DNA of 64,000 bases, taken from the NCBI GenBank assembly GCA_963643505.1, contig CAVIKF010000008.1, positions 2,363 through 66,362 on the forward strand, given 5' to 3'. The notes beneath the pieces were generated by a model. The model had not been told where the DNA came from, ran no database searches, and saw nothing but the letters and a program-made list of their open reading frames with translations. Source of the DNA: Eggerthellaceae bacterium. GTDB taxonomy: Bacteria > Actinomycetota > Coriobacteriia > Coriobacteriales > Eggerthellaceae. Positions 25,162 through 36,189 of the stretch are shown here, piece after piece (positions within the stretch are counted from its first letter, which is position 1; every line of letters begins with the position of its first letter). The translations under genes were made by a program, and so were the position numbers.

Positions 25162-25426
25162 CTGCACGGCGTCGCACGAAGTGGCGTTTGGCGGTTCGCG
25201 CATTGAAACCATTGCCCGGGAAATTACCAAATTCACAGCATTGGTAAACGGAGAACTCGGAGTTTGTATCGAAAAGCCCTTTTAGTAACAATGTGGCAGG
25301 TTATTCGCTTAAATCATACTAACTCATGTTAGCGTATGCAGGGGGGGTAACGGAAATGCTGAGGGACGTATGCCCGACGCATGATGGAGCTTCGGTGTGC
25401 TGACAACCGGATGGCCGGGAAGGTCG

Positions 25427-25488
25427 CCTAGAAGACGCCTTAGAATCAAAAACAGATTCTAGGAGGTTATACCCACGTTCGGCACGCT
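25427..25488 (+). repeat. Copy A of a ~62-nt paralogous intergenic element (partner at 36128-36189)
   Basis: GATTCTAGGAGGTTATACCCACGTTCGGCACGCT (25455-25488) matches GATTCTAGGCGATTGCACCAACGTTCGGCACACT (36156-36189) at 28 of 34 positions. The 28 nt upstream, starting CCTAG in both copies, match at 17 of 28 with identical spacing. The element contains the inverted repeat TAGAATC...GATTCTA. Confidence 0.7.
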
Positions 25489-25507
25489 ATTGAGGGGAGA
25501 TCCCCAT

Positions 25508-25873
25508 ATGAATGACCATATGAACGACCTGGGGCAATTTTACGACGCCGTCGGTGCGAATGCCGATGAGGTTATCGGTCGTTTGGGTGGCGATCCGACA
25601 TTGGCGATGCACTTTCTAGCAAAATTTCAGGAGGATAGCAGTTTCCGCGCACTTTGCGCCGCTTTGGATGGTGGCGACGTAGAAACTGCATTCCGTGCGG
25701 CGCACACGCTCAAGGGCGTTTGTGCGAACCTCGGTCTGCAAACGCTCTTTTCCAAGGCGTCAGATGTGACCGAGTTGCTTCGTGCCGGTGAGATGGAGAA
25801 CGCCAAACGTGCCCTGCCTGCCCTTGAGGCGGAGTACAACCACGTTTGCGTCCTGCTCGCAGGGCTGTGTTGA
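25508..25873 (+). CDS. Histidine phosphotransfer (HPt) domain protein
   Basis: The HPt signature is AFRAAHTLKGVCANLGL (HxLKG). It is a small all-helical protein. The ORF-track start is TTG 25490; I prefer ATG 25508 because GAGGGGAGA lies ~8 nt upstream. Confidence 0.8.
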   Translation: MNDHMNDLGQFYDAVGANADEVIGRLGGDPTLAMHFLAKFQEDSSFRALCAALDGGDVETAFRAAHTLKGVCANLGLQTLFSKASDVTELLRAGEMENAKRALPALEAEYNHVCVLLAGLC

Positions 25874-25918
25874 ACAAATCCGACATGCCGAAAAGACTAA
25901 ACCTGTAACGGAGGATAT

Positions 25919-27802
25919 ATGAACAATACGCTATCCAGTTACCTCGTGTGCTCAGCCCTCATGGTCATAATTATGGGTACTCTTGCGGTCCGCTCGTTTT
26001 CGGCGGTTTCGGATAGAAAAAGTCGCGTTCGTACGCAGTTCCTCATCGGTATGACAGCGCTGTACGTTATTGTCGACTTCGTTTTCATCGCCTGTCATCT
26101 TTCGGGGGGACTCACGGTAGATGCTTGGACGGTCGTTGCCTTCGTCTTTTATCTGGTCTACACCTTGCTACCGTTTGGGTGGCACTTATTTGTACGTAAC
26201 TTTGTTGGAAGCACATTCGGATTGATATTCCGCAGGTTGGAGTTGGTCCCGATCGTGGTTTTGCTCGGCATGGTCGTCGCAACGCCATTTACAGGCGCTC
26301 TATACTATTTCGATGACGCCGGTATGTACGCGAGAGGCCCTCTTTACGACGCCTACTCTATACTTAACTATTTCTACTATGCGGAGTGCATACTCGACCT
26401 ACTGATTATCCTCATACGTCAAAAGCAGGGGGACGAGCGCTACGCTTTTCGGACGATGTTGATCTCGCTCATCATGTTGGTTGGCGCGGTTGTCAACAGC
26501 TCGGTCCTCCCGGTAGGGACGATTCTCCCGTTCATGCCGTTTTGCTCGGTAGTGGTCACAATGTTTGCGTTCTATTTCATTGCGGCAAAAGACAGCGATT
26601 TGCTCAAGGAACGTCAGGAGAAGGCGATTCAGACGGCGCTGAAAGAGGCGCGGGAGGCGAATCAGGCGAAGACCATTTTCCTCTCCCGCGTGAGCCACGA
26701 TATCCGTACTCCTATGAATGCCATCATCAATCTGACGGAGTTGGCACGGCAGGAGAACGACCCCGCTCGCGTGCACGAGTATCTGAACAAGATGGCGGTC
26801 TCCGGTAAATTCCTGCTCGTTTTGATCAACGACATTTTGGATATGAGTCGTATCGAAAGCGGCGAGCTGACGCTTCACAGGGAAAGCCTGACCCGCTCTG
26901 AATTTCTCGCCACGGTGGAAACGATCATCTGCCCGCTGATGGAGGAAAAACATATCAACTTCCACAGCGAGTTGAACCCCGGGGAATACACCATTCTCGT
27001 GGACAAGATGCGTTTCAACCAGATATTCTTCAACCTGCTCGCCAACGCCGCAAAATTCACGCCGGAGGGCGGCGATGTCTGGTTTGAGGTTACGAATCTC
27101 GAGGCCGCGGACAACAGGCTCAAGATTAAATTCGTCGTGCGCGACAACGGTATCGGTATGAGCGAGGAATTCCAACAGCACTTGTTCGAGCCGTTTGCGC
27201 AGGAATCCTCTAAGCTCAACGAAAAGAAGCAGGGTACGGGTCTTGGTCTGTCCATCGTCAAAAACCTTGTGGACACGATAGGCGGCACAATCTCTGTCAA
27301 GAGCAAGCTAGGCGAGGGAACGGAATTCGTCGTCATGTTCGAAGTGGACATCCTCGCGCGGGAGGGCGCTTCTTCTTCTTCTTCTTCTTCTTCTGCCGTT
27401 TCCTCGTCGCTGGACGGGTTACGTGTTCTGTTGGTGGAGGACAATGAAACGAACACCTATGTGGCGAAGATTATCCTAGAAAAGGTCGGATGCGTCGTTA
27501 GCACGGCGGAGAACGGGCAGGAGGCAGTGGACGCCTTTTCTGCGAGCGAGCCGAACACATTCGACGCGATTCTGATGGATGTGCGTATGCCCGTGATGGA
27601 CGGGATTGAGGCGACAAAGGCCATCCGCGCTCTCGATCGCCCCGACGCTGCGAGCGTCGCAATCGTTGCCATGACCGCCGACACATTCGACGACGAGCGT
27701 AAAAATATGCTCGAAATCGGCATGAACTATCATCTGCCTAAACCCATTGACGCACAAATGCTTTATGAGATATTGCAAACCTGCTCTCACCGTCCAGATT
27801 GA
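25919..27802 (+). CDS. Hybrid sensor histidine kinase / response regulator (multi-TM sensor, HisKA, HATPase_c, REC)
   Basis: I count about 6-7 N-terminal TM segments. The H-box is FLSRVSHDIRTPMNAI. The N and G boxes are NLLANAAKFTPEGG, DNGIGM and GTGLGLSIV. The receiver reads LRVLLVEDNETN...DAILMDVRMPVMDG...AMTA. Confidence 0.9.
   Translation: MNNTLSSYLVCSALMVIIMGTLAVRSFSAVSDRKSRVRTQFLIGMTALYVIVDFVFIACHLSGGLTVDAWTVVAFVFYLVYTLLPFGWHLFVRNFVGSTFGLIFRRLELVPIVVLLGMVVATPFTGALYYFDDAGMYARGPLYDAYSILNYFYYAECILDLLIILIRQKQGDERYAFRTMLISLIMLVGAVVNSSVLPVGTILPFMPFCSVVVTMFAFYFIAAKDSDLLKERQEKAIQTALKEAREANQAKTIFLSRVSHDIRTPMNAIINLTELARQENDPARVHEYLNKMAVSGKFLLVLINDILDMSRIESGELTLHRESLTRSEFLATVETIICPLMEEKHINFHSELNPGEYTILVDKMRFNQIFFNLLANAAKFTPEGGDVWFEVTNLEAADNRLKIKFVVRDNGIGMSEEFQQHLFEPFAQESSKLNEKKQGTGLGLSIVKNLVDTIGGTISVKSKLGEGTEFVVMFEVDILAREGASSSSSSSSAVSSSLDGLRVLLVEDNETNTYVAKIILEKVGCVVSTAENGQEAVDAFSASEPNTFDAILMDVRMPVMDGIEATKAIRALDRPDAASVAIVAMTADTFDDERKNMLEIGMNYHLPKPIDAQMLYEILQTCSHRPD
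27371..27394 (+). repeat. (TCT)8 in-frame trinucleotide repeat (Ser8) in the kinase-receiver linker
   Basis: tcttcttcttcttcttcttcttct starts on a codon boundary (27371 - 25919 = 1452) and encodes ASSSSSSSSAVSSS. Confidence 0.95.
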
Positions 27803-27813
27803 GTGGATGAAAC

Positions 27814-29046
27814 ATGCAAACAGGTTTGACAGCAGGCTACTATGCAGAAATTGATATTCTGTGTGTGCTCATTTTGGGACTTTTGGCCGTCAAGACGATA
27901 GGCTCTAGTTTTATCAGTGAGCAAAAGCGGAGTTATACCGTTGTGTTGCTGTGTCACATTGTTTTTGCCATAAGTGATCTGGTCTGGATATTCAACAACG
28001 GTTTTCTTCCGCTTTTGGGGGTTTTCCCGAAATACGGGGTCGCCCTCAGTTATCTGGCCAACTCTCTGAACGTGATTGCTTCCGGTGTGACCGGGTTTGC
28101 ATGGCTGGCTTTTTCAGAGATCATTCAGAAGCACAACATCTTGAAGGATCGGAAAAAGTTGGCACTGTATTTGTTGCCGCTCGTTATCCTTGTGCTTTTG
28201 ACCGCAACGACATGGTTCACGCACATCATGTTTTCCGTTTCCGAACAGGGCGAGTTTTCCCGCGGCGTAGGCTATGTCATACAGGTGATCGTATCCATGG
28301 GATACATTGTTCTTGCAACGGTTCGTTCTTTGCGACGCACGAGGCAAAAAATCACCATGAAAGAGCGACAAGAGGCACGCGCTGTTGCGGCGTTTATTAA
28401 GCTGCCGCTTTGTGGCATTTTGTTGCAGCTGTTGTTCCCTGAGATGCAGATGTTGTTTCTTGGCACCGTTGCGGCGTTGGTGGAGGTTTTCATCGCCCTT
28501 CAGCATACGCAGGTGCTTATAGACCCGCTTACGGGCCTGAACAACCGTATGATCCTTGACCAAAAGGCAGAGGAGGCCATCCGTGCTTGGAACGGTGAGC
28601 AGGAGGAGTTGTATCTGTTGCTCATCGATGCGAATGACTTTAAGCAAATCAACGACAAATACGGTCATGTGACCGGAGACCTTGTATTGAAGATGATAGC
28701 CGGCGTGCTTCAAAAGCTTTGTGGTGACAAGGACTACCTATGTCGTTACGGTGGTGATGAGTTCGTAGTTTTGCTTCATATGCCGAGCGGTGAGGGTTGC
28801 ACGCAGATCGCTCATAGGATTGATGAGGACCTCGCGGCCCTCGATGCTCCGTGTCGGATATCCGTTTCTGTGGGTGCTTGTCGATACACACCGGATATAG
28901 AGGGCTTGGAAGAGTTCATTAAAAGAGCGGATGAGGATATGTACCGCATAAAAGCCGCTAAGAAGTCGGCCGCTAAGAAGTCGGCTGACATGCGCGAAAA
29001 GGATAATGGCGAAAGAGACGCAAGCAAAAAGATAGATAGAAGGTAG
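27814..29046 (+). CDS. Membrane-bound diguanylate cyclase (multi-TM N-terminus + GGDEF domain)
   Basis: The N-terminal half is hydrophobic (~6 TM segments). GGDEF-domain motifs are DPLTGLNNR, LLLIDANDFKQINDKYGHVTGD and RYGGDEFVVLL. No RxxD I-site is seen 5 residues upstream of GGDEF (the sequence there is GDKDYLC). Confidence 0.9.
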   Translation: MQTGLTAGYYAEIDILCVLILGLLAVKTIGSSFISEQKRSYTVVLLCHIVFAISDLVWIFNNGFLPLLGVFPKYGVALSYLANSLNVIASGVTGFAWLAFSEIIQKHNILKDRKKLALYLLPLVILVLLTATTWFTHIMFSVSEQGEFSRGVGYVIQVIVSMGYIVLATVRSLRRTRQKITMKERQEARAVAAFIKLPLCGILLQLLFPEMQMLFLGTVAALVEVFIALQHTQVLIDPLTGLNNRMILDQKAEEAIRAWNGEQEELYLLLIDANDFKQINDKYGHVTGDLVLKMIAGVLQKLCGDKDYLCRYGGDEFVVLLHMPSGEGCTQIAHRIDEDLAALDAPCRISVSVGACRYTPDIEGLEEFIKRADEDMYRIKAAKKSAAKKSADMREKDNGERDASKKIDRR

Positions 29047-29077
29047 ATGGCAAAACTTCCCTGAGAGGACGAATGAT

Positions 29078-30574
29078 TTGGAAAAAAGCAGAATCCTGAT
29101 TGCTGATGACGCTGAACTGAATCGTGAGATGCTCAGCCAAATGTTGGGCGAGCAGTATGACTTTGCATACGCTTGCAACGGCGTGGAGGCTGTAGAGCTG
29201 CTCGGTAGCGGCGCATCGATTGACCTTGTCCTGTTGGACGTGAATATGCCGGAGATGGACGGCTTTGAAGTGTTGCGCGTTATGAACGAGCGGCACTGGA
29301 TCGAGGAGTTTCCCGTCATCATCATCTCAGCGGAACACGGGGTAGATTTCATCACGCAGGCCTATCAGCTCGGTGCGGTGGACTATATCAGTCGTCCTTT
29401 CCATGCTGTCGTGGTGCAACGACGAGTGGAAAACACCCTGCTCGTGTACTCCAACCAAAAACGGCTGATTCGCCTGGTCGGAAACCAGGTGTACGAGCGG
29501 GAAAATGTTAACAACGCGATGATCAACATATTCAGCAACATCATCGAGCTGCGTAACCACGAATCCGGCAGCCATACGCTAAACGTGCAGACAATCACCG
29601 ATTTGTTGCTGCATAGGCTGATCGAGCTGACGGACCGCTACGGGCTGACAAAGGCGGACATTTCCCTCATCTCGTCGTTGTCCGCGCTACACGACATCGG
29701 CAAGATCAAGATCCCCGAGGAAATCCTTAACAAGCCGGGCAAGCTTACCGCCGAGGAACAGGCTCTGATGAAAACCCACACCATCGAGGGCGACCGTATC
29801 TTGAGTAACTCCGAATTGGATCAGAGCAGCCAGTTCGTCCGCACGGCGCGTGACATATGCCGTTGGCACCACGAGAAGTATGATGGAGGCGGCTATCCTG
29901 ACGGTTTGGTGGGCGACGATATCCCCATCTCCGCGCAGGTTGTGTCGATGGCGGACATCTACGACGCATTGACCAGCGAGCGGTGCTACAAGTCAGCCAT
30001 CCCGCATGAGAGGGCGATGGAGATGCTCACCGGTGGCGAGTGCGGTGCGTTCAACCCCCTGTTGTTGCAATGCCTGACCGACGTCTCCGCCTCGCTCAAG
30101 GAGCTTAAGGAAAGCAGCGGGCGCTACGACTACCAAAGCAGCGCGGCCTACGTCGCGGACGAGCTTCTCGCGGATGATAGTTTGCCGCAGGATAATGCGC
30201 TGCGTCGCATGCTTGACAACGAGCGCATGAAGAAGGACTTCTTTATGGGTTGCAGCGGCGGTGTTCTTTTCGAGTATGACCGGCCCTTGCACAAGGTCAC
30301 CTTCATCAATCAATTGGGAGACAATGCGGGAAAGCGCAGGGTGATCTATGCCTCGCGAGACGGCGTGGACAAGATTATGCCCGTGGAGCATTGGAACGAA
30401 CTGAAGGAGAAGTTGCAACACACCACGCATGATGAGCCGGACATCACAACGGATGTCGTTCTCCAATTGGACGGGGATCGCCGCTCTTACCGCGCCAAGG
30501 CGATGGCGATTTGGCCCGAGCGTGGCACGGAGTATATCAGCGTGGTGGGGCAGCTCCTGCCAACCTCAATGTAG
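29078..30574 (+). CDS. Response regulator with HD-GYP c-di-GMP phosphodiesterase domain and an extra ~150-aa C-terminal domain
   Basis: The start is TTG. The REC domain reads RILIADDAELNRE...DLVLLDVNMPEMDG...SAE. The HD-GYP domain reads HESGSHTLNV...ALHDIGKIKIPEEILNKPGKLT...HHEKYDGGGYPDGL...MADIYDALTSERCYK. I do not recognise residues ~345-498. Confidence 0.88.
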   Translation: MEKSRILIADDAELNREMLSQMLGEQYDFAYACNGVEAVELLGSGASIDLVLLDVNMPEMDGFEVLRVMNERHWIEEFPVIIISAEHGVDFITQAYQLGAVDYISRPFHAVVVQRRVENTLLVYSNQKRLIRLVGNQVYERENVNNAMINIFSNIIELRNHESGSHTLNVQTITDLLLHRLIELTDRYGLTKADISLISSLSALHDIGKIKIPEEILNKPGKLTAEEQALMKTHTIEGDRILSNSELDQSSQFVRTARDICRWHHEKYDGGGYPDGLVGDDIPISAQVVSMADIYDALTSERCYKSAIPHERAMEMLTGGECGAFNPLLLQCLTDVSASLKELKESSGRYDYQSSAAYVADELLADDSLPQDNALRRMLDNERMKKDFFMGCSGGVLFEYDRPLHKVTFINQLGDNAGKRRVIYASRDGVDKIMPVEHWNELKEKLQHTTHDEPDITTDVVLQLDGDRRSYRAKAMAIWPERGTEYISVVGQLLPTSM

Positions 30575-30621
30575 AAACGCCAACATAACGCAGCAAAGTG
30601 AAAGGGAACGCACCGAGGCGA

Positions 30622-30656
30622 AAGCAGTCAAAATCCGCAAAGGGAAGCAGTCAAAA
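30622..30656 (+). promoter_or_regulatory. Direct repeat AAGCAGTCAAAA x2 (23-nt period) upstream of the lipoprotein gene; candidate operator
   Basis: Perfect 12-mers lie at 30622-30633 and 30645-30656. The second ends 22 nt before ATG 30679. Confidence 0.35.
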
Positions 30657-30678
30657 CTCGTAGAGAGGAGAAAGCAGA

Positions 30679-32514
30679 ATGAAACGACGGAGAAGAATCG
30701 CACTACTATTGGTAATGGCATGCGTCGCATTTCTGCTGATTGGCTGCAGCGGGAATACGACGGAGAACGGGTCCGCCAAAACGGGCGAACACGAGCCGAT
30801 TACCATCATGGATGCGCAACGGGATTACACCAAGTTGATCGAGCTTGTGCACGAGAAATATCCCGAGATCAATATCGAGGTCGTCCCCTACCGAGGACGC
30901 AACATGTCGGCGTATTGCAAACAACAGCTTGAAACGGGGATCATGCCCGACATCTACTCCACCACGCAGGCTTGGGACGCCGATCTGCAAAAGGAAAACC
31001 TCATCGACCTTAGCCAGTATGCTGTCTGCGAGCTTTACAACACGGCGCGGTTGGAGGAATGCGTTGTGGACGGCGGTGTGTATTTGCTGCCTTTTGACTA
31101 CAGCATCACAGGGTTCTTGTGCAACAAGTCCTTGCTTGAGCGCAACGGCATCGCTATTCCGACGAGCTTCGCGCAAATGCGTGATGAAACGGCTCCCGCG
31201 CTGCAAGAAAAGGGCATCAAGGTTGCTGATTGCCTGTTGGATTTGCCGGGTTCTGCGTTCAACTACTTCTTCAACGTCAATGCCAGCAAATACATGAACA
31301 CCGTTTCCGGCAGACAGTGGCGGGCCGCGTTCACCGATATGGACAACGATACGTGGGCTAGCGGCAATAAGAAGATGTCGGAGTGTTTGGATTATTTCCA
31401 ACAGTGGATCGACTGCGGCTTGATTGTCAACGACGAGCGCAGCGGAGAATACTCTTCATGCTTGAATGACTTTACCAGTGGCAACGCGGCCTTCCTGGTC
31501 GGTACGGTAAAGCGGTTCACGCAAAATGACGACGGCACGGGTGACCAGTATGTGCTGATGCCTTGGCTTTCCGAGAACGGGGAGGACAATACCTATATCA
31601 CGAGTCCGTCGCGTTTTTACGGTTTGAGCAAGGAGTTGGCGGAGAAAGGCAACGAGCAGAAGTTGGAGGATGCCCTGCATGTGCTCGAGGTGCTCTCCAC
31701 TAACGAGGGTTACCTCGCCATCAACGGTGAAGATTCCACCAACATGTGCTCTATCAAGGATTTTGAGGTTGCTGAGGATTCGCCCTATGCCGAGGCGATA
31801 AAGCAGGTGAGTCTCGGTCATGCGATGAGTCTGATCTACACCGGTTGGGACAGCTACCTCGTTCCCTTCGGTGAGGCGACGGTGAGTTGGATCAGCGGCG
31901 AGAGTACCGGTGATGCGGCACTTGCCGCGCTCGATGAGGCGAAGCGTTCCGTGCAAGGGCAGGGCGGCGCCACCGTCTACGCCACGGTGACAGAGGAGTT
32001 GGATACCGTGCAGGCTGCCCAGTTGAGCGGGCAGATGTTCATGGAGGCGACCGGCGCGGATGCTGCGCTCATCTCCTACAACGTCTATAATCCCGAGATC
32101 CACGCCCTGATGGAAAACAGCCTCGGTGCGAATGGCCATATCCTGCCGGGCAAGATGACCGAGGAATACATCACCGTCTTCTTGCCTACCGGATGGTATG
32201 ACACGTTGGTGACGATAAAGCGGACCGGCAGCGAGATTGAGGAGATGGCCAAGGCGGGCGCGGACACGCGTGGCACAGGCTACAAGTACCCCTATGTGTT
32301 CATGACGGCCAACGGTCAGCCTCTTGAGGCCGACAAGACCTACACCGTGGTGGTGTGCGGATACAACAAGGATGAGAAGGAGACGCTCGGACTTACGGAT
32401 ACCGGTATCGTGGGTCTCGATGCTGCCAAGAAGTACCTGCAGAAAGCGGGCGAGGTGTCCGCGGCGACGCTGGACGAGTCGCTCGTGAAGTTCGTGGGTA
32501 CGGCAGCAAAGTAG
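30679..32514 (+). CDS. Lipoprotein: extracellular solute-binding-protein-like domain fused to a C-terminal domain resembling 5'-nucleotidase_C
   Basis: The lipobox is LLLVMACVAFLLIG-C. The N-terminal ~400 aa have SBP family-1-like features (ITIMDAQRDYTKLIELVHEKYPEINIEVV...). The C-terminal ~190 aa (ATVYATVTEELDTVQAAQ...ADAALISYNVYNPE...TIKRTGSEIEEM...) resemble the substrate-binding domain of 5'-nucleotidases; that part of the call is tentative. Confidence 0.6.
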   Translation: MKRRRRIALLLVMACVAFLLIGCSGNTTENGSAKTGEHEPITIMDAQRDYTKLIELVHEKYPEINIEVVPYRGRNMSAYCKQQLETGIMPDIYSTTQAWDADLQKENLIDLSQYAVCELYNTARLEECVVDGGVYLLPFDYSITGFLCNKSLLERNGIAIPTSFAQMRDETAPALQEKGIKVADCLLDLPGSAFNYFFNVNASKYMNTVSGRQWRAAFTDMDNDTWASGNKKMSECLDYFQQWIDCGLIVNDERSGEYSSCLNDFTSGNAAFLVGTVKRFTQNDDGTGDQYVLMPWLSENGEDNTYITSPSRFYGLSKELAEKGNEQKLEDALHVLEVLSTNEGYLAINGEDSTNMCSIKDFEVAEDSPYAEAIKQVSLGHAMSLIYTGWDSYLVPFGEATVSWISGESTGDAALAALDEAKRSVQGQGGATVYATVTEELDTVQAAQLSGQMFMEATGADAALISYNVYNPEIHALMENSLGANGHILPGKMTEEYITVFLPTGWYDTLVTIKRTGSEIEEMAKAGADTRGTGYKYPYVFMTANGQPLEADKTYTVVVCGYNKDEKETLGLTDTGIVGLDAAKKYLQKAGEVSAATLDESLVKFVGTAAK

Positions 32515-32645
32515 GATTGTACGGAAAGCGGCGTTTTCGGGTCGGGAAGGGCCCGCAGGCGCCGCAGCACGATTGTGCCGCACTGCCGGGAAGTACGAGT
32601 CTGTTGGCATCGCAACACGGTAGGATTGCACACGATAGGATTGCA
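32512..32645 (+). promoter_or_regulatory. Three copies of TAGGATTG(C/T)A in the leader of the second kinase gene
   Basis: TAGGATTGTA lies at 32512-32521 and overlaps the stop of the lipoprotein gene. TAGGATTGCA lies at 32621-30 and 32636-45. The last copy abuts ATG 32645. Confidence 0.35.
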
Positions 32646-35260
32646 TGGAACAAAAGCTGGAAAAATCTGTCTCTCGACGGCGATGGCTCATCCCCGCATT
32701 GGTTGTCGCCTTGATTGCCACGCTGTGCATCGCAGGAGTGTTTCTCTATCGCTATGCCTTTGAGCAGCTGCATGAGGAGTCCGTTTCCCAGCTCGAGGAG
32801 CTAAGCCAACAACTCTTTGAGAAGCTTGACGTTCAAATTGAAAACCAGTGGTCCTACCTAGAAAAACTAAGGGCTTCGCTTGCGGAGATGGGCGACATGA
32901 CGCGGGATGAGTTGGCGGAGCAGCTTGCGCATGGCGAGGAGGACTTCGGTCCATACGGAAAGCAGATCTACTTCCGTGCAATTGATGAGGACGGCTATTA
33001 CTACACAAATACCGGCAGACAGGGGTTTTGGTCGGGGCTCGACCGATTGTCCGGAGCGGAGCGGCAATGCTTCACGATTGCCGACTGGTTGGACAATGAA
33101 AGCTATATGGTGTTCGCCGTCAAGGTGACGGAGACGTTGGAGGTGGACGGTCACAGGATAGAGTATTTGGTTCTTCTGCGCTCCATGATGGATATGCAAC
33201 CGTATTTCCGCTCCAGCGCTTTCGGGAACCAAAACATGGTCTATATCATCAACTACGAAGGTTTCGTCATGGCATCGGACGGCGATTTGCCGGAAATCGA
33301 CTTTGAGGGAAATAACGTTTTTTACCGCATGAAGGAGCAGACTTATCCCCACATGGACGGTTTTGATGCCGTGTTGGAACGGGGAAACACGTCCGGGACA
33401 GTCTGCACTGATGTGATCATCGGAGGGAAGAAATACTATCTGGTCTACGACCGCTTGCCTAACTATGACTGGTCGGTGTTTTTGTTGATGTCCGGCGAGG
33501 ATGTGGCCGTCAGTGCGACCGAGATGGTTAACTCGATGTTGCGGGTGTTTCTTCTGCTTGCCGGCGTGCTCGTGGCGGCGGGGACGGCAATCTTTGCTTT
33601 TGTCCTGCGTATCCAAAGAGATAAGAGGTTGATGGCGGTTAGGGAGCAAAGCGAGAAGGCACTTCAAGAGGCGAATAGGGAGCTCCAAAAACTGCAGGAT
33701 GAAACGGATAAGGCACGTCTCGCCGCGGAAAAGGCGACCACGGCAAAGAGCCAGTTCCTTGCCAATATGTCCCACGATATTCGTACGCCGATGAACGCCA
33801 TCATGGGTGTGACGCATCTGATGGAGCACGAGACGGATAATCCCGCGCGATTGCGCTACTACATCAGGAAGCTCCAATCCTCCGGTCGGCATATGCTGGG
33901 CCTGATCAATGATATTTTGGATATGAGCAAAATTGAGACAGGCGAGGTGCAGCTTAATTGCGAACCTATCAAGTTGGCGGAACAGGTGGGGCAAGTCGAG
34001 AGCATCATCCGTCCCCAGAGCAATGAGAAGGGGCAGGCGCTCACGATTCGCGTTTATGAGGTGACACACGAATACCTGATAGGCGACAGTATCCGAATCC
34101 GCCAGATATTCCTGAATCTTTTGACAAATGCGGTGAAGTATACGCCAAGCGGCGGCTCGATCCTCTTTGAGATCAGGGAGTTGCCTTGTGAGGAGCCAAA
34201 CTGCGCCACGTTGCGCACTTCTGTCATCGACAATGGCCACGGTATGTCGGCAGACTTTTTGACACACATTTTCGAGCCGTTCACTCGCGAAACGAGCACC
34301 CTTACCAACAAGGTGCAGGGCACGGGTCTTGGCATGAGCATCACCAAGAGCCTAGTGGATTTGATGGGTGGAACCATCGCGGTGGAAAGTGAGTTGGAGA
34401 AGGGCAGCCACTTCGATGTGACGTTGACGCTTCCTATCGACACGGAGGCGATGCGTGCTCCTCATATCCAAAGCGTACTTCTGATTGCTGACGAGAAGAC
34501 GTTGGTGACGAACGTGAAGGCCTCGCTGCGTGAGACCTCCGTGGGGTTGCGCGTCGCCGCTTCATTGGACGAGGCGATAGCGTTGCTTCGCGAGGAACCG
34601 GCGGATGCAATTCTTTTGTCCGGTTATCTTGCCACAGAGGGGTTGGCGGACACGGTGCGTCTGTTGCGTTCTGCAGCGCGTGGCGAGGTGTTGGTATTCT
34701 GTTGCGACTATGCGCACAGGGCGAGCGTGCGCGACGTGCTGATCGACAGCGACGTAGACGGACTGATTGCGCGCCCGTTCTTCTTTGAGAACTTGGTGCT
34801 CGCGGTTAAACATTCGCGCGAAGAGGGAACGAGTTCCGAACGCGAGGGACGTTTATCCGCATTGAACGGGAGACGTTTCCTTTGCGCCGAGGACAACGCG
34901 CTCAACGCCGAGATCCTTGAGGCGATGCTTGCCTTACACGGTGCTTCCTGCACGATTTATCCGGACGGCGCGGCGCTTGTGGATGCTTTTGCCTCGGTGA
35001 AGCCGGGGGATTACGACGCGATTCTGATGGATATGCAGATGCCGAACATGAACGGTGTGGAGGCGACGCGCGTTCTCCGCAGCGGAGAGAATCCGCTCGG
35101 CAAGACGATCCCCATCATTGCCATGACCGCCAACGCTTTTATTTCGGATGTGGAGGAGTGTCTTGATGCGGGCATGGATGCGCATCTGGCAAAGCCGCTT
35201 GACATCAACGCGATGGAGCGTGTCTTGCAAGAGCTTTTGGGCGGAAGTGTTGCGGAGTAG
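32645..35260 (+). CDS. Hybrid sensor histidine kinase (extracytoplasmic Cache-like domain, HisKA, HATPase_c, degenerate receiver, canonical receiver)
   Basis: TM1 is LIPALVVALIATLCIAGVFL. A ~270-aa extracytoplasmic region follows, then TM2 (VFLLLAGVLVAAGTAIFAFVL) and a coiled coil. The H-box is FLANMSHDIRTPMNAI, and the G-box is GTGLGMSI. The first receiver-like region lacks the acceptor Asp context (DAILLSGYL). The second receiver is canonical (RFLCAEDNALN...DAILMDMQMPNMNG...AMTA). Confidence 0.9.
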   Translation: MEQKLEKSVSRRRWLIPALVVALIATLCIAGVFLYRYAFEQLHEESVSQLEELSQQLFEKLDVQIENQWSYLEKLRASLAEMGDMTRDELAEQLAHGEEDFGPYGKQIYFRAIDEDGYYYTNTGRQGFWSGLDRLSGAERQCFTIADWLDNESYMVFAVKVTETLEVDGHRIEYLVLLRSMMDMQPYFRSSAFGNQNMVYIINYEGFVMASDGDLPEIDFEGNNVFYRMKEQTYPHMDGFDAVLERGNTSGTVCTDVIIGGKKYYLVYDRLPNYDWSVFLLMSGEDVAVSATEMVNSMLRVFLLLAGVLVAAGTAIFAFVLRIQRDKRLMAVREQSEKALQEANRELQKLQDETDKARLAAEKATTAKSQFLANMSHDIRTPMNAIMGVTHLMEHETDNPARLRYYIRKLQSSGRHMLGLINDILDMSKIETGEVQLNCEPIKLAEQVGQVESIIRPQSNEKGQALTIRVYEVTHEYLIGDSIRIRQIFLNLLTNAVKYTPSGGSILFEIRELPCEEPNCATLRTSVIDNGHGMSADFLTHIFEPFTRETSTLTNKVQGTGLGMSITKSLVDLMGGTIAVESELEKGSHFDVTLTLPIDTEAMRAPHIQSVLLIADEKTLVTNVKASLRETSVGLRVAASLDEAIALLREEPADAILLSGYLATEGLADTVRLLRSAARGEVLVFCCDYAHRASVRDVLIDSDVDGLIARPFFFENLVLAVKHSREEGTSSEREGRLSALNGRRFLCAEDNALNAEILEAMLALHGASCTIYPDGAALVDAFASVKPGDYDAILMDMQMPNMNGVEATRVLRSGENPLGKTIPIIAMTANAFISDVEECLDAGMDAHLAKPLDINAMERVLQELLGGSVAE

Positions 35261-35314: not shown

Positions 35315-35860
35315 ATGAAGCTTGTCATAGCATCCGATATCCATGGCTCCGCGGCGGCCGCCCACCAATTGGTTGAGCGCATCGAGGAGCTCCAACCTGA
35401 TCGCCTTGTCTTTTTGGGGGACCTGTTGTATCACGGCCCGCGAAATGATTTGCCGACAGAGTATGACACGAAGGCGGTCTATGAGCTGATTGGTGCGTTG
35501 CCGTATCCCAAGACGGCGGTGCGTGGCAATTGCGATGCCGAGGTTGACCAATGGATGTTCGATTTCGATATCCTTGCGGACTACCGACAAATCGAGGTCG
35601 ATGGGCGCGTGTTCGCCATGACCCATGGTCACCTGTATGGTCAGGGGGTCTTGCCTCCTGGGTGCGAGGATGCGGCGGTGCTCATGAACGGCCACACCCA
35701 CGTTAAGGTTCTCGAGCGCAAAGATGGGCTTGTCTTGCTCAACCCGGGTTCCACGTCGATTCCGAAGGATGGGTTGGCGAGCTACGCCACGTACGACAAC
35801 GGTGTCTTCGCTTTGCGTGCGCTTGACGGCGGCGAGGTCGTCAAGGAGTTGGCGATATAG
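35315..35860 (+). CDS. yfcE: YfcE-family metallophosphoesterase
   Basis: The calcineurin-like motifs appear in order: ASDIHGS, FLGDLLYHGPRN, VRGNCD, MTHGH, NGHTH and LNPGS. At 181 aa the length is typical of YfcE/MJ0936-type phosphodiesterases. Confidence 0.8.
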   Translation: MKLVIASDIHGSAAAAHQLVERIEELQPDRLVFLGDLLYHGPRNDLPTEYDTKAVYELIGALPYPKTAVRGNCDAEVDQWMFDFDILADYRQIEVDGRVFAMTHGHLYGQGVLPPGCEDAAVLMNGHTHVKVLERKDGLVLLNPGSTSIPKDGLASYATYDNGVFALRALDGGEVVKELAI

Positions 35861-35900: not shown

Positions 35901-35988
35901 GACTACGTCCGACAACCCCATGACGAATTGGCTACGTTGGCAGCCCGCACTGGAGAGCGGCGAGGTTGTCAAGGAGTTGGCTGCGTAA
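35901..35988 (+). pseudogene. Decayed duplicate of the last ~25 codons of yfcE, with its own stop codon
   Basis: GCGGCGAGGTTGTCAAGGAGTTGGC (35957-35981) matches 35829-35853 at 24 of 25 positions. In frame it reads ...SGEVVKELAA-stop, against ...GGEVVKELAI-stop for the intact gene. Weaker similarity extends upstream (CTACG..CGACAAC). Confidence 0.7.
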
Positions 35989-36094: not shown

Positions 36095-36127
36095 ACTTGT
36101 GCTTGCGAATTAGACGTGAATCGGTAC

Positions 36128-36189
36128 CCTAGGAAATGGGTTAGAAAGGCAAGCGGATTCTAGGCGATTGCACCAACGTTCGGCACACT
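36128..36189 (+). repeat. Copy B of the ~62-nt paralogous intergenic element (partner at 25427-25488)
   Basis: The alignment is given under copy A. Both copies have the same orientation and lie 10,701 nt apart. Confidence 0.7.

Follow-up and report, generated by a model that had tools for sequence, protein, structure and literature searches.

A candidate two-unit phosphorelay cassette with predicted cyclic di-GMP hydrolysis output in an Eggerthellaceae genome

Do six neighbouring signalling genes of an Eggerthellaceae bacterium (GCA_963643505.1), a gut actinobacterium that is uncultured, encode a phosphorelay that ends in the degradation of cyclic di-GMP (c-di-GMP)? The genes lie at positions 25508-35260 of the window, by which we mean the whole 64,000 nt stretch that was analysed (contig CAVIKF010000008.1, positions 2,363-66,362, forward strand). 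All are on the + strand, and they encode, in order, a histidine phosphotransfer protein (HPt), a hybrid histidine kinase (HK1), a diguanylate cyclase (DGC), a response regulator (RR) of the REC-HD-GYP type, a lipoprotein, and a second hybrid histidine kinase (HK2). An initial annotation of this DNA had proposed that two sensory inputs converge through one HPt on the RR, and Pfam searches together with motif reading placed every domain and motif of the six genes where that annotation had put them. Our preferred reading, to which we give a probability of about 0.6, is that the genes form a phosphorelay cassette of two units with c-di-GMP hydrolysis as its output; within it we infer the phosphotransfer steps, the sign of regulation, the contact between a solute-binding protein (SBP) and its kinase, and the ligands.

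The HPt gene (25508..25873, + strand) encodes a stand-alone protein of 121 aa when read from its ATG, and the reading frame is open from a TTG at 25490; the orthologue in the same genus is also 121 aa long. The protein matched the Pfam domain Hpt (PF01627, 47.3 bits against a cut-off of 24.6, E=2.5e-12), carries the phospho-His motif HTLKG with Gly at H+4, and contains no other domains. A PF01627 search of the window's own genome (G000; 2.07 Mb assembly, 100% complete) found a single Hpt domain, the one at the present locus. The genome totals were 16 receiver domains and 17 HATPase_c hits, and six hybrid kinases were identified: HK1, HK2, two on contig C17, one on C11, and one truncated by the end of C29 (C-numbers denote contigs, and the L-numbers used below denote related loci). 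Since six hybrid kinases lack an HPt of their own and the genome encodes one HPt, we conclude that they depend on it, and for the same reason more than two inputs probably converge there. The single HPt of the initial annotation thus stood up to the genome census, and its two inputs are probably too few. A hybrid-kinase-type receiver fragment of 107-131 aa (G000:C6:78437-78832), which lacks the first strand and has no kinase upstream, is probably what is left of a seventh hybrid kinase.

Five classical kinase-regulator pairs are encoded in the genome, with five DNA-binding response regulators adjoining classical kinases. Only two regulators had no adjacent kinase: the REC-HD-GYP protein, from whose gene the HPt gene is three genes away, and a LytTR regulator (G000:C2:193042-193773), encoded on a different contig from the cassette among housekeeping neighbours.

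The RR gene (29078..30574, + strand) encodes, as judged from Pfam, motifs, and orthologue alignments, a REC-HD-GYP protein of the RpfG family with an extra C-terminal domain. The receiver (Pfam Response_reg, E=1.2e-23) has its acidic pair D10/D11, acceptor D54, and S84 in place. The HD-GYP domain matched HD_5 (E=3.2e-25) as well as Pfam HD, with the residues E162/H166 (NHESGSH), HD205-206, K209, H234, HH264-265, GYP272-274, and D293; the match to the NCBIfam NosR-type model for response regulator phosphodiesterases (1.9e-38) fell below the cut-off of that model. Among HD-GYP proteins the REC-HD-GYP architecture is the most common; such proteins depend on phosphorylation of REC for their activity, and HD-GYP domains typically lie at the C-terminus (bioRxiv 10.1101/2021.11.05.467447). 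The domain order of the RR departs from the two-domain type of RpfG, as a conserved stretch of ~150 aa with the motifs ERxKKDFFM, FEYD, and AIWP follows the HD-GYP domain (residues ~345-498; 30110-30571). In other Eggerthellaceae genera the same ~150-aa domain is flanked by HD-GYP on one side and a C-terminal GGDEF domain on the other, all within one regulator of 703 aa (L018:4636-6747). The domain had no Pfam match and nothing significant in a PDB sequence-profile search; it is possible that it serves as a second input.

HK1 (25919..27802, + strand) was identified by Pfam, hydrophobic segments, and motif reading as a hybrid histidine kinase with a probable seven-transmembrane (7TM) sensor. 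When its N-terminus was scanned alone, HisKA_7TM (PF16927) matched over nearly the full model span with 30.5 bits, against a cut-off of 28.6. The remainder consists of HisKA (H260), HATPase_c, and a receiver (D554), and the protein ends just past the receiver without an HPt domain. The DGC (27814..29046, + strand; Pfam GGDEF, E=7.8e-39) is a membrane diguanylate cyclase with a 7TM-like sensor, for which HisKA_7TM reached 27.9 bits, just under the cut-off, again over nearly the full model span. Its active site is intact (RYGGDEF 311-317, with GGDEF at 313-317, NDKYGH at 280, and DPLTGLNNR at 237). At the I-site position, five residues before GGDEF, it reads GDKD, and since RxxD is absent, product inhibition through the I-site would not be expected. 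A common sensor in HK1 and the DGC was considered and rejected, as the two have no pairwise similarity and are linked solely by weak matches to the same Pfam 7TM model.

HK2 (32645..35260, + strand; Pfam, an AlphaFold2 model with Foldseek, and motifs) consists of a first transmembrane helix, an extracytoplasmic domain of 270 aa, a second transmembrane helix, HisKA (H377), HATPase_c, a pseudo-receiver (24 bits) with Ser at the position of the acceptor Asp, and a true receiver (D796). Like HK1, with which it shares the motif SHDIRTP, it ends just past the receiver without an HPt domain. The sensor was modelled with a predicted local distance difference test score (pLDDT) of 86.6, and Foldseek matched the model to the dCache domains of McpH, PctA, DctB, and HK1S-Z16 (E=6e-9 to 1e-6). 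Sequence matches were fainter: Pfam dCache_1 was faint on HK2, the counterpart kinase of genome G024 scored 1.2e-8 and 35.2 bits, below the 45-bit cut-off, and a PDB sequence-profile search with the HK2 sensor gave nothing significant. Both kinases ranked best or second-best against the NCBIfam LuxQ and TorS models, far below the cut-offs.

Directly upstream lies the lipoprotein gene (30679..32514, + strand), whose product has the lipobox LIGC and combines an SBP fold with a domain resembling the C-terminal domain of 5'-nucleotidases (AlphaFold model, Foldseek, Pfam, and PDB profile). Its AlphaFold model, built with 45 homologues, had a pLDDT of 91. For residues ~36-430 the top Foldseek matches were family-1 sugar SBPs (RafE and chitin-oligosaccharide binders), and PDB and NCBIfam sequence hits agreed with the SBP fold. 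Residues ~432-611, scanned alone, passed the threshold for Pfam 5_nucleotid_C with 26.6 bits, the full-length scan being faint, and a profile of this region against PDB found 3ivd (8e-10), followed by 2z1a, NadN, and UshA, all as 5'-nucleotidase C-terminal domains. The metallophosphatase catalytic domain is absent and the N-terminal 400 aa have the SBP fold, so the protein is predicted, from sequence and model, to be a binding protein and not a nucleotidase. In the alignment the nucleotidase stretch GGIR reads YGANG, with the Arg gone. The positions that we take to be the base-stacking aromatics of UshA seem to be kept as Trp and Tyr, and serve only as a hint to the ligand. No fusion of a family-1 SBP to a 5'-nucleotidase C-terminal domain was found in the literature searched, no permease or ATPase genes of an ABC transporter lie within the block, and the genome holds no paralogues of the lipoprotein, of the HK1 and HK2 sensors, or of the RR C-terminal domain.

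The initial annotation had described a multi-transmembrane sensor in HK1, an intact GGDEF without an RxxD I-site in the DGC, an SBP-like lipoprotein, and, in HK2, a Cache-like sensor with one pseudo-receiver and one true receiver. These descriptions are borne out in turn by the hydrophobic segments with the weak HisKA_7TM match, the motif reading, the lipoprotein model and its Foldseek matches, the dCache structural matches, and the Ser in one HK2 receiver with D796 in the other.

Conservation of the block was followed at several distances. The six genes recur in identical order in another species of the genus, at ~84% nucleotide identity and with an unmatched upstream flank. The lipoprotein family has at least 500 members; it was scanned with one genome per species, giving 80 loci mapped by tblastn with domain-level queries. 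An HK2-type kinase with a homologous sensor directly followed the lipoprotein gene in all loci with enough downstream sequence (73/73). In five loci (L063, L065, L088, L090, and L102) the lipoprotein gene is tandemly duplicated before the HK2-type kinase, which suggests that one kinase is served by more than one protein that presents ligands. We defined a closer clade by lipoproteins at least 54% identical (15 loci with well-covered flanks) and a distant clade by 35-53% identity. The closer clade contained HPt in 11/15 loci, each time within 10 kb of lipoprotein-HK2, and it contained REC-HD-GYP in 10/15, HK1 in 11/15, and the 7TM cyclase in 4/15. At least five arrangements were seen: the window's own order (L040-L042, L048), lipoprotein-HK2 convergent with HPt-HK1-RR (L024, L059, L056) or with HPt-DGC-RR (L023), the order lipoprotein-HK2-HPt (L030-L037), and HPt divergent from the lipoprotein gene (L029, L044, L047). 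Two arrangements were independently confirmed by called genes with precomputed Pfam hits.

The link between HPt and RR was also found among 40 GTDB relatives, 18 of which had an HPt homologue, 12 an RR orthologue, and 11 both (Fisher p=2.4e-4). Nine of these relatives had a strong RR orthologue (E<1e-110), and in every one the HPt was adjacent or in the same locus, though HPt identity was down to 33-42%. A complete genome from another genus encodes, in order, an HPt, a REC-HD-GYP-X-GGDEF fusion, a lipoprotein (5_nucleotid_C, 2e-36), and a dCache hybrid kinase. Every tested genome with the lipoprotein-HK2 pair (15/15) had at least one HPt domain, mostly as a single small stand-alone protein. 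Identity to the window, a crude measure, co-varied between lipoprotein and HK2 sensor (rho 0.90) and between HPt and HD-GYP (rho 0.82). Such identity patterns would fit a cassette of two sub-modules that occur together recurrently and are reshuffled.

We propose that an extracellular ligand binds the lipid-anchored lipoprotein, which would dock on HK2's dCache domain, much as LuxP does on LuxQ, and so set the balance of kinase and phosphatase activity. The 7TM domain of HK1 would sense a second, membrane-associated cue. Autophosphorylation at H377 of HK2 or H260 of HK1 would be followed by transfer to their own receivers (D796 and D554, respectively), from there to the His of HTLKG in the HPt, and then to D54 of the RR; the four further hybrid kinases, which lack an HPt of their own, probably feed the same HPt. 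Phosphorylation of the RR receiver would alter HD-GYP activity, and by analogy with RpfG we would expect activation and a lower c-di-GMP level. The 7TM cyclase without an I-site would supply c-di-GMP, probably as the local partner of the phosphodiesterase, and the fusion of GGDEF to the same regulator in other genera supports such a pairing. The wiring from hybrid kinases through HPt to REC-HD-GYP, as the initial annotation had drawn it, is partly supported overall and is the best-supported reading, on the grounds of the sole HPt, the conserved linkage, and the co-occurrence.

Several observations weigh against this reading, and each bears on a rival explanation. First, the orphan LytTR regulator could also be a target of the HPt, and seven relatives have an HPt homologue and no RR orthologue, so that HPts of this type can serve other acceptors. 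The HPt might then mainly feed the LytTR regulator, and thus gene expression rather than c-di-GMP turnover, while the REC-HD-GYP protein would branch off to the side, drain phosphate as a sink, or compete for it. Pseudomonas aeruginosa HptB is one example of a branched HPt pathway, and the LytTR regulator has no kinase gene beside it. Set against this are the shared locus of HPt and REC-HD-GYP in 9/9 relatives with a strong RR orthologue, the co-variation of the two proteins, and the position of the LytTR gene on another contig among housekeeping genes. On balance we regard this explanation as unlikely.

Second, the position at which nearly all receivers have Lys is occupied in the RR receiver by Arg105 (DYISRPF; window 29078-29452, residues 1-125). 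This Arg is kept in all 18 distinct RR orthologues examined, down to 47% identity, and the pseudo-receiver of HK2 likewise reads ARPF. CheY K109R is phosphorylated yet does not signal, and the link between phosphorylation and activity in the RR may be unusual. As Arg105 is present in every orthologue, it is a family trait, and the readout of phosphorylation may be changed. The receiver might then be no conventional switch at all, serving instead for docking, for dimerisation, or as a slow phosphate sink, with the phosphodiesterase governed mainly by its C-terminal domain or by contact with GGDEF. That extra domain is conserved and atypical of the family, GGDEF is its neighbour in other genera, and the GYP motif of RpfG is reported to mediate its binding to GGDEF proteins (PMC3749722). 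Against a non-switch receiver stand the presence of D10/D11, D54, and Ser84 and the strong Pfam REC match; an Arg is still able to contact the phosphoryl group, and the tight, conserved linkage to the HPt is hard to explain without phosphotransfer. We therefore doubt this explanation about as much as the LytTR one. The intact acceptor and HD-GYP residues speak for the phosphorylation-gated degradation proposed in the initial annotation; with Arg105, simple gating is not assured.

Third, the six genes may not form one transcription unit. Gaps between consecutive genes from HPt to HK2 measure 45, 11, 31, 104, and 130 nt; the first three agree with the 11-45 nt given earlier, and the last two, together with a tandem 23-nt direct repeat before the lipoprotein gene (30622..30667, + strand; repeat search, 12 nt exact), argue against a single operon. 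The repeat may be a putative regulator binding site or the promoter region of a separate lipoprotein-HK2 unit. A promoter scan of the locus performed no better than on shuffled sequence, a terminator scan found none convincing in the intergenic gaps, and no public sequencing runs holding the locus were found. As the units HPt-HK1-DGC-RR and lipoprotein-HK2 are shuffled in other genomes, the six genes are probably not one operon. In the distant clade lipoprotein-HK2 stands mostly alone, with HPt and RR nearby in 1/11 well-covered loci, and by the same crude measure lipoprotein and HPt did not co-vary in their identity to the window (rho 0.04); the histories of the two units are therefore in part separate. 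That they are neighbours merely through shuffling or horizontal acquisition, as separate pathways with no shared function, is nevertheless quite improbable, because HK2 must use the only HPt in the genome or dead-end, because HPt lies within 10 kb of lipoprotein-HK2 in most well-covered close loci, and because in some loci it stands right after HK2 (L030-L037) or right before the lipoprotein gene, despite the separation in the distant clade, the independent identities, the bracketing 67-nt repeats described below, the upstream flank that differs from the sister species, and the rarity of the lipoprotein family in the window's order.

The lipoprotein family occurs in 5/401 sampled genomes of that order, two of them at high identity. 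Lipoprotein copies at least 54% identical were found in ~40 species, whose local GC ranged from 30% to 60%, and the GC of the cassette equalled that of its flanks everywhere. These data are compatible with an old horizontal spread of the cassette; a recent acquisition is unproven. A compositional island was rejected for the block, whose GC of 54.0% (genome 56.2%) lies at the 12th percentile of 10-kb windows. The NCBI labels of the CAV* 'cleanbin' metagenome-assembled genomes (Bacteroidaceae, Sphaerochaetaceae, Flexilinea, and others) conflict in many cases with GTDB and were not used as evidence; these conflicts make them unfit for inferring cross-phylum transfer. One contig labelled Bacteroidaceae (L014/L056, G027:C74) is part of a genome of the window's own GTDB order.

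The copies of the 67-nt direct repeat (repeat search, + strand) lie at 25422..25488 and 36123..36189, are 72% identical, and bracket the signalling block plus a gene for a YfcE-like phosphoesterase. In a short-query blastn search of the genome each copy matched its own position only. The YfcE-like gene has a 35-nt segment at its 3' end (35819-35853) that recurs 128 nt downstream (35947-35981) with 86% identity, and this duplication may be a recombination scar. The flanking TPM, zinc-ribbon, and YfcE-like genes were rejected as members of the cassette, as their neighbourhood is not conserved, and an Rfam scan of the window matched no RNA elements. Counted over the whole genome, five proteins carry GGDEF, four carry HD-GYP, and one carries PilZ. 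The sole PilZ-protein gene lies directly upstream of three secreted-protein genes (G000:C3:78721-82744) whose N-termini, judged by eye, have the look of SipW/TasA-type signal peptides (e.g. ...ASTFAWF...), and these proteins could be a surface-fibre output controlled by c-di-GMP.

How does the proposed relay compare with known systems? In Xanthomonas campestris the RpfC to RpfG phosphorelay, which responds to diffusible signal factor (DSF), turns on an HD-GYP phosphodiesterase, and RpfG makes contact with GGDEF proteins (PMC3749722). A His-Asp-His-Asp relay from a membrane hybrid kinase to a REC-HD-GYP protein, inferred here from the genes, clustered genes, and an HD-GYP protein tied to GGDEF proteins are common to both. 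The HPt of RpfC is fused to the kinase, whereas the present HPt is encoded separately and would serve several kinases; the sensors here are 7TM and dCache with an SBP, the RR carries an additional C-terminal domain and an Arg in place of the Lys, and the host has an actinobacterial-type, Gram-positive genome. The initial annotation had called coupling of this kind in a single locus uncommon. Within this gene family that view is not upheld, for the cassette recurs in dozens of species and the principle is known from RpfC/RpfG (PMC3749722).

Genes for SBP-stimulated kinases that sense through dCache-like domains, LuxPQ and HptAS among them, usually lie beside the gene of the SBP (PMC8050422, PMC11113362). 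As in LuxP/LuxQ-LuxU-LuxO of Vibrio, TorT/TorS, and HptA/HptS (PMC8050422), an orphan SBP gene here adjoins a gene for a dCache-like hybrid kinase, and a small stand-alone HPt would collect from several hybrid kinases. The output differs, being a c-di-GMP phosphodiesterase and not a transcription factor, as does the SBP, a family-1 lipoprotein fused to a 5'-nucleotidase C-terminal domain. In the HptB hub of P. aeruginosa several hybrid kinases signal through HptB to HsbR, a pathway that intersects with the cyclase HsbD; the acceptor is a REC-PP2C regulator with a partner-switch, and c-di-GMP is affected indirectly. The likeness to HptB lies in one stand-alone HPt, several hybrid kinases, and a tie to c-di-GMP metabolism, and the difference is that the acceptor here is the phosphodiesterase itself.

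A bolder proposal concerns the lipoprotein. It might be an undescribed extracellular co-receptor whose binding domain, which seems to have kept the aromatics and lost the phosphate-binding Arg, senses a nucleoside-like or glycoside-like gut metabolite and signals through the dCache kinase and the HPt into c-di-GMP degradation. If this were true, the cassette would be portable between unrelated gut anaerobes, because its output, a diffusible second messenger, needs no host-specific promoter. We offer this as speculation with a low chance of being right.

The design principle is already known, and the principles of two-component and c-di-GMP signalling are unchanged by these results. The novelty lies in the combination: one stand-alone HPt as the only hub, a lipoprotein made of an SBP and a 5'-nucleotidase C-terminal domain as the obligate partner of a dCache kinase, and an RpfG-type RR with an added domain and an Arg-for-Lys receiver, in a little-studied gut lineage. 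Our full-text literature searches found no work on c-di-GMP signalling in Eggerthellaceae. The locus is a tractable circuit, comprising candidate sensors, a single relay protein, and an enzyme as its output. One HPt for six hybrid kinases in a genome of 2 Mb would, as read from the sequence, make a compact natural many-to-one phosphorelay. The lipoprotein represents a new family of putative co-receptors with at least 500 members, strictly paired with a dCache hybrid kinase, and its ligand would be a cue that many gut anaerobes monitor.

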